From NCBI RefSeq assembly GCF_055900595.2, contig NZ_CM148325.1: 64,000 nucleotides of DNA. One strand, given 5' to 3'. Of this stretch, positions 43,495 to 43,610 are shown piece after piece (the first letter of the stretch is position 1; every line of letters starts with the position of its first letter). Both the position numbers and the translations under genes were made by a program. The notes beneath the pieces were generated by a model. That model had not been told where the DNA came from, ran no database searches, and saw only the letters and a list, made by a program, of their open reading frames with translations.

Positions 43495-43496
43495 AT

Positions 43497-43580
43497 GCCG
43501 GATGCGACGCTTGTCGCGTCTTATCCGGCCTACAGGATTGCACATGTAGGGCGGATAAGGCGTTCACGCCGCATCCGCCA
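43497..43580. repeat. REP/BIME elements inside the eut operon (eutG-eutH spacer)
   Basis: GCCGGATGCGACGC..GCGTCTTATCCGGCC and GGGCGGATAAGGCGTTCACGCCGCATCCGCC, in inverted orientation. Confidence 0.6.
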
Positions 43581-43610
43581 ATAAATAACAACTAACAGGG
43601 AGTAAAGGCG

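Follow-up and report, generated by a model that had tools for sequence, protein, structure and literature searches.

A single BIME-2 unit between eutG and eutH in an Escherichia coli ethanolamine operon and its likely modest influence on the eut transcript

Published REPs of the z2 type are 37 nt long and those of the y type 35 nt, with a conserved GTAG motif and an interrupted stem in common (PMC8266576), and in the published view the REP family owes its spread or maintenance to the RayT (TnpA-REP) transposase. The BIME-2 family combines Y and Z2 units in inverse orientation with short linkers and no IHF site, forms variable tandems whose unit number differs between strains, and is a target of gyrase. 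Escherichia coli K-12 MG1655 carries an annotated tandem element, REP178, at 2568140-2568322 between eutG and eutH (supplement of bioRxiv 10.64898/2026.03.23.713779). A literature search found no paper linking eutG, eutH and REP.

Several REPs lying within operons have been given a role in mRNA metabolism. According to literature cited in PMC6061677, REP structures withstand 3' exonucleases and Rho-dependent attenuation is promoted by some of them; the elements between malE and malF and between hisJ and hisQ are reported to guard the mRNA upstream of them against such exonucleases (Newbury et al. 1987 and Khemici & Carpousis 2004, as cited there). REP325 in yjdMN has a dual effect, stabilisation of the transcript upstream of it and attenuation, partly via Rho, of the one downstream. 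For 146 tandem gene pairs that carry a REP, the ratio of upstream to downstream RNA is above that of controls, with a wide spread. REPs located no more than 15 nt from a stop codon have been reported to depress translation of the gene ahead of them, as in the nrdAB-type stop-proximal elements (Liang, Rudd & Deutscher 2015, as relayed by PMC12306157).

The present study examines a 64,000-nt stretch of DNA (NCBI RefSeq assembly GCF_055900595.2, contig NZ_CM148325.1), referred to throughout as the window. Its eut region is 100% identical to that of E. coli strain Z0117EC0005, in which eutG and eutH are annotated by RefSeq. Based on this annotation and the gene ends in the list of open reading frames, positions 43495-43610 are exactly the eutG-eutH gap, 116 nt in length (Table 1). 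The 16 junctions of the operon measure, in order, 12, -26, -4, -4, 38, 105, 11, 10, -11, 116, -4, 11, 20, 9, 12 and 45 nt. The original prediction, made from the sequence of the window, had placed a REP/BIME pair in this gap, which it gave as longer than 100 nt in an operon whose genes mostly overlap or lie about 10 nt apart; the measured lengths agree, with the caveat that the eutM-eutN gap, at 105 nt, is long too and holds no REP.

Table 1 Features of the eutG-eutH gap and its flanks, in window coordinates
Feature	Position	Strand	Basis or remark
eutG CDS (ethanol dehydrogenase)	42307-43494	+	ORF list, RefSeq annotation of the 100%-identical record
Direct repeat CAATAAAT, left copy	43489-43496	+	spans last eutG codon and stop; repeat search
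eutG stop codon TAA	43492-43494	+	ORF list
REP unit, Z2 type, 37 nt, GCCGGATGCGACGCTTGTCGCGTCTTATCCGGCCTAC	43497-43533	+	head towards eutG; sequence, regex scan, fold, Rfam naRNA4 alignment
RNA hairpin of Z2 unit (hairpin 1)	43497-43529	+	fold
CTAC, the GTAG motif of the - strand, Z2 unit	43530-43533	-	sequence
Tail-to-tail linker, 12 nt, AGGATTGCACAT	43534-43545	between both REPs	sequence
REP unit, Y type, 34 nt, reads GTAGGGCGGATAAGGCGTTCACGCCGCATCCGCC on the + strand	43546-43579	-	sequence, regex scan, fold, Rfam naRNA4 alignment
GTAG of Y unit, then palindrome (+ strand reading)	43546-43549		sequence
RNA hairpin of Y unit (hairpin 2)	43550-43579		fold
Direct repeat CAATAAAT, right copy	43579-43586	+	repeat search
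A-rich spacer, 31 nt	43580-43610	+	essentially unpaired in MFE fold; sequence
eutH Shine-Dalgarno AGGGAG	43597-43602	+	8 nt ahead of ATG
eutH CDS (ethanolamine permease/facilitator)	43611-44837	+	ORF list, RefSeq annotation of the 100%-identical record

The gap is filled by two inverted REP units, as had been predicted: a Z2 and a Y unit of opposite orientation, arranged tail to tail, for which the sequence, the inverted repeats and matches to the two halves of the naRNA4 model all agree. Only the dinucleotide AT separates the eutG stop from the Z2 unit, so that the first stem begins 2 nt past the stop codon. The unit lengths fit the published z2 and y types, and both units carry the GTAG motif and an interrupted stem, the interruptions being a 1x1 mismatch (43505/43521) in hairpin 1 and a 2x2 internal loop (43557-58/43571-72) in hairpin 2. 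The units thus share the features of the REP family, namely an imperfect palindrome of about 29-37 nt with GTAG, a mismatch or bulge in the stem and many extragenic copies. In alignments to Rfam naRNA4, a model of a REP pair, the Z2 hairpin of the model aligns the first unit (34.6 bits, E 9.7e-5) and its Y hairpin the second (37.7 bits, E 1.9e-5). Since shuffles of the window are expected to contain 0 matches to the REP consensus pattern, and considering also the naRNA4 alignments and the z-scores of the folds given below, the pair is not a chance palindrome.

An inverse pair of Y and Z2 (not Z1) units with no IHF linker and with a tandem number that varies is the composition of BIME-2, and the eutG-eutH element is a single BIME-2 unit (Z2 and Y, tail to tail) orthologous to REP178 of K-12. 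BIME-1 was considered and rejected, as an IHF site is absent: the IHF consensus WATCAANNNNTTR has no match at 43471-43630 on either strand, even with one mismatch allowed. Compared with the BIME-2 family as described, the window holds the minimal form, a single unit, known from its sequence. The element shares with REP178 its locus, its flanks, the order Z2 then Y and the start of the first unit 2 nt after the eutG stop. The K-12-type allele, however, comprises two 100-nt units with four REPs in a gap of 216 nt, against one unit with two REPs in 116 nt in the window, and there are a few point differences in the stems and loop. REP325 (naRNA4, RF02564, yjdM-yjdN) is likewise an intra-operon Y/Z2 array between co-directional genes, but it has multiple units, and the naRNA4 model describes a head-to-head Y-linker-Z2 arrangement of which the window presents the tail-to-tail permutation, Z2-linker-Y. 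The central Y-linker-Z2 segment of the K-12-type allele reaches 71.8 bits, above the naRNA4 gathering score of 59.5 bits, whereas the two half matches of the window allele fall below it.

The element is therefore an ordinary, known repeat, already annotated in K-12 and belonging to an E. coli REP family of several hundred copies. There are four REP loci in the 64-kb window, all of them intergenic, and the REP part of a 1.1-kb query causes that query to match a median of four places per genome. A head-to-head Z2/Y pair at 18737-18819, between the convergent genes ypfN and ypfH, is the only hit in the window above an Rfam threshold (naRNA4, 89 bits). Single REP units lie on the minus strand at 14080-14113 and 30109-30144; one of these occupies the bamC-purC gap (REP181 in K-12) and the other the tkt-ypfG gap. 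The transposase gene rayT was not located within the window. With the K-12 gene as query, a megablast match to rayT was obtained for just 3,574 of the 5,426 complete E. coli genomes, yet REPs are present in essentially all.

Sixty records were sampled at regular intervals along the ranked list of 5,428 matches (5,426 E. coli genomes). The one-unit gap of 116 nt was found in 21 of the 60 (~35%) and the two-unit gap of 216 nt in 22 (~37%). A further nine records (~15%) fell in a class with 55% query coverage that has three units where checked, all five inspected records having a gap of 316 nt. A 99-nt gap holding a decayed remnant of the O157:H7 type accounted for four records (~7%), a 169-nt gap with a different repeat, the form also carried by LF82, for three (about 5-7%), and one record gave a REP-only hit without a match to eutG or eutH. 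The E. coli alleles of 116, 216 and 316 nt expand and contract in steps of 100 nt, and so do the gaps of 474 and 578 nt in divergent Escherichia. The sequence TAA AT GCCGGATG, which sets the spacing from the eutG stop to the first unit, is constant in every Escherichia BIME allele examined. In one isolate with the three-unit allele, E. coli CFSAN064036 from poultry, eutG is annotated as a frameshifted pseudogene.

The two remaining alleles differ from this series in kind. In the 99-nt allele the first REP lacks its 5' half and the second carries substitutions, and the fold of the gap is no better than that of shuffles (z -0.42). The 169-nt allele consists of a GGG/CCC-rich dispersed palindromic repeat that is unlike REP and which we take to resemble the 'box C' repeats; it is present at full length in 384 of 5,426 genomes (~7%), with related copies at a median of six places per genome. 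Because the last bases of the Y REP are kept in it (CAGCATTGGC vs CAGCATCCGC), this repeat replaced a BIME and did not enter an empty site.

Outside E. coli, the gap of divergent Escherichia is 315-578 nt long (474 and 578 nt included) with three to six units, and that of E. whittamii is 116 nt with one unit. Salmonella enterica subsp. diarizonae has a single REP in 67 nt, several Citrobacter have head-to-head pairs in 119-123 nt, and Klebsiella has REPs of its own type in 170-216 nt. Gaps without any REP measure 27-32 nt in C. braakii, a C. amalonaticus strain, other Citrobacter, Yokenella and Pluralibacter, and 34-48 nt in Buttiauxella, Hafnia and Morganella. In an empty-site comparison, the spacer that follows the pair in the window corresponds to the entire 27-nt gap of REP-free Citrobacter. 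Judging from these sequences, REP occupancy of the gap is widespread but fluid in type, orientation and number, a pattern that fits recurrent acquisition as well as an ancient one with later turnover and loss.

The pair is flanked by two copies of the 8-nt direct repeat CAATAAAT, which resemble a target-site duplication. The right copy aligns with spacer sequence in Salmonella, Citrobacter and Klebsiella (CTACAAAT or TACAAAT). Because a remnant of the Y REP persists in the 169-nt allele, that allele does not represent a separate insertion bearing the same duplication. A target duplication is not expected for RayT-type elements, the alternative being chance similarity within an A/T-rich spacer, and the repeat, for which we have no explanation, is probably coincidental.

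A stable RNA structure, on which the original prediction depended, is predicted for the pair, either as two hairpins or as one long hairpin. Hairpin 1 folds at -22.8 kcal/mol (z -5.2 vs shuffles), hairpin 2 at -20.9 kcal/mol (z -4.3) and the pair as one long hairpin at -48.8 kcal/mol (z -6.2); none of 200 shuffles was as stable in any of the three cases. Folding of 43480-43625 leaves the eutH ribosome-binding region essentially unpaired, with a weak long-range helix of 4 bp as the one exception. The predicted folds are thus of the kind that a role in mRNA stability or processing would require. A small open reading frame starting at an ATG right after the eutG stop, with 29 in-frame codons and ending at the second CAATAA, was rejected as a feature of interest; it is a by-product, given that both its length (12, 29, 66 or 84 codons) and its sequence change with the allele.

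Signals that could divide the transcript at this junction were sought by consensus scans. No hairpin with a U-tract (intrinsic terminator) was found in the gap, the hairpins being followed by AAUAAAUAAC, and the scan of 41400-44900 returned no sigma-70-like promoter. With neither a terminator nor a promoter-like site, eutHABCLK are apparently reached by read-through. A Rho loading signature, in the form of C-over-G enrichment or a C-rich, G-poor stretch, was not seen downstream of the pair, and the K-12 Rho-binding table has peaks near REP178 on the antisense strand only (supplement of bioRxiv 10.64898/2026.03.23.713779).

The same scans make it probable that the pair is transcribed within the long eut mRNA, as they gave no promoter- or terminator-like site in or around the gap. 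On this mRNA it would form two stable hairpins, or one long one, from 2 nt past the eutG stop, leaving the eutH ribosome-binding site free. The hairpins would be expected to block 3'-to-5' exonucleases and so to protect the eutS-G message; some Rho-assisted attenuation of read-through into eutHABCLKR is possible, and the output of EutG may be slightly lowered, since the hairpins lie within 15 nt of its stop codon. Such a stabiliser and attenuator is plausible by comparison with other characterised REPs. As at malE-malF and hisJ-hisQ, REP hairpins stand between cistrons here, although the role in those operons is experimental and at eut it is proposed by analogy. If attenuation were strong, eutBC and the activator gene eutR, both of which lie downstream, would be starved of transcription. 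With these genes beyond the pair and no promoter found that could restart transcription, strong termination is unlikely. We judge it rather probable, by analogy with these systems, that the single BIME-2 unit exerts a modest, allele-dependent modulation, with protection of eutS-G and some attenuation.

Per-gene RNA data for eut were found for one strain, the AIEC isolate LF82, in which RPKM values without and with induction are 35 and 168 for eutG and 106 and 514 for eutH (PMC6379400), placing eutH about 3-fold above eutG. LF82 carries the 169-nt non-REP allele, for which reason its RNA-seq was rejected as a test of a REP effect; as the step exists there without REPs, a step in abundance at this junction is not simply attributable to them. 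The baseMean values of eutG and eutH in K-12, given in the preprint supplement, were set aside because they appear to stem from different tables.

The main competitor of this modest modulation is a passenger role, neutral or selfish, in which the pair merely occupies one of the operon's few permissive gaps and eut expression is not meaningfully affected, a reading that we regard as quite possible, if short of probable. The allelic record speaks for it in several ways: the gap holds anything between a decayed remnant and six units, the O157:H7-type allele has no stable fold, another repeat stands in place of the pair in ~7% of genomes, and related genera have REP-free gaps. This range of variation, with replacement and with absence in relatives, makes a fixed, required function unlikely, and the decayed, replaced and REP-free alleles show that a genome can have the operon without the element. 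Reported REP effects are also highly context-dependent, with a wide spread. Against a pure passenger, it is improbable that a hairpin of -20 to -49 kcal/mol placed 2 nt past a stop codon in a translated polycistronic mRNA has no effect whatever, and the presence of REPs of varied type and orientation in this gap in Escherichia, Salmonella, Citrobacter and Klebsiella could also reflect selection. On the best reading of this evidence, the element owes its presence mainly to the spread and persistence of REPs in gaps that permit them, and modest modulation remains the most likely account of what it does there.

A translational effect, in which hairpin 1 stalls ribosomes terminating at the eutG stop and leads to tmRNA rescue and less EutG, is somewhat unlikely as the principal role, and it is compatible with the explanation that we prefer. 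The first stem falls well inside the distance at which stop-proximal REPs are reported to down-regulate the upstream gene (Liang et al. 2015, cited in PMC12306157), a position that it shares with the nrdAB-type elements, and the spacing of the TAA to the first unit is conserved across the Escherichia BIME alleles examined. In other genera, however, the distance from stop to REP is 5 to ~25 nt, and about half of the REPs of the original study share the class of 15 nt or less, so that stop-proximity is not specific to the site.

At the level of DNA, the Y/Z2 pair might serve as a binding and cleavage site for gyrase and so ease the supercoiling of an operon that is long and strongly induced. BIME-2 elements, and within them mostly the y-type REPs, are enriched in gyrase cleavage sites irrespective of transcription (PMC6379681), and the Z2 and Y composition of the window element is the definition of BIME-2. 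Only a subset of BIME-2 elements are cleaved according to the same study, however, its supplementary text makes no mention of eutG or eutH, and there is one unit only in the gap; we consider a gyrase site here unlikely.

The pair might instead act on the downstream message, if cleavage at the AU-rich eutG stop left a eutH mRNA with a 5'-terminal stem-loop resistant to RNase E. 5'-terminal stem-loops are mRNA stabilisers, and hairpin 1 is immediately preceded, on its 5' side, by the AU-rich, single-stranded CAAUAAAU. The sole data with eutH above eutG come from LF82, which has no REPs at this site, and this route is decidedly improbable. That the pair is an operon boundary (terminator) or a naRNA4-type small-RNA gene can hardly be the case, despite its stable hairpins and the score of the K-12-type two-unit allele above the Rfam threshold, given that no U-tract follows the hairpins, that no promoter-like site downstream could restart eutHABCLK, that the window allele stays at 37.7 and 34.6 bits against a threshold of 59.5, and that the nucleoid role proposed for naRNA4 is itself contested in the literature.

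A further suggestion, which we consider improbable, is that the number of BIME-2 units in the gap is a strain-specific dial for the ratio of eutS-G to eutH-R products. The states seen are the remnant, one, two or three units, up to six units in divergent Escherichia, and the other palindromic repeat. If true, it would contribute to the known differences between E. coli lineages in their use of ethanolamine in the gut. The element itself matters little, as a member of the most common E. coli repeat family at a site annotated in K-12. The natural allelic series, from the remnant through one, two and three units to the replaced allele and the empty Citrobacter site, is of modest added value, providing material for relating REP number to expression in a long operon relevant to gut colonisation.

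A few further observations concern the rest of the eut region. The eutM-eutN gap (39663-39767), the sole other long gap in the operon, is predicted to form hairpins at 39670-39695 and 39703-39737, with an MFE of -43.1 kcal/mol (z -2.4). The operon is uninterrupted in the window at the eutA-eutB junction (44834-47610), where K-12 has the 6.8-kb cryptic prophage CPZ-55. Between eutR and hemF, two additional genes on the minus strand (~50875-52495) encode a DUF1963 domain protein and a hypothetical protein, whereas in K-12 the distance between eutR and hemF is 5 nt.
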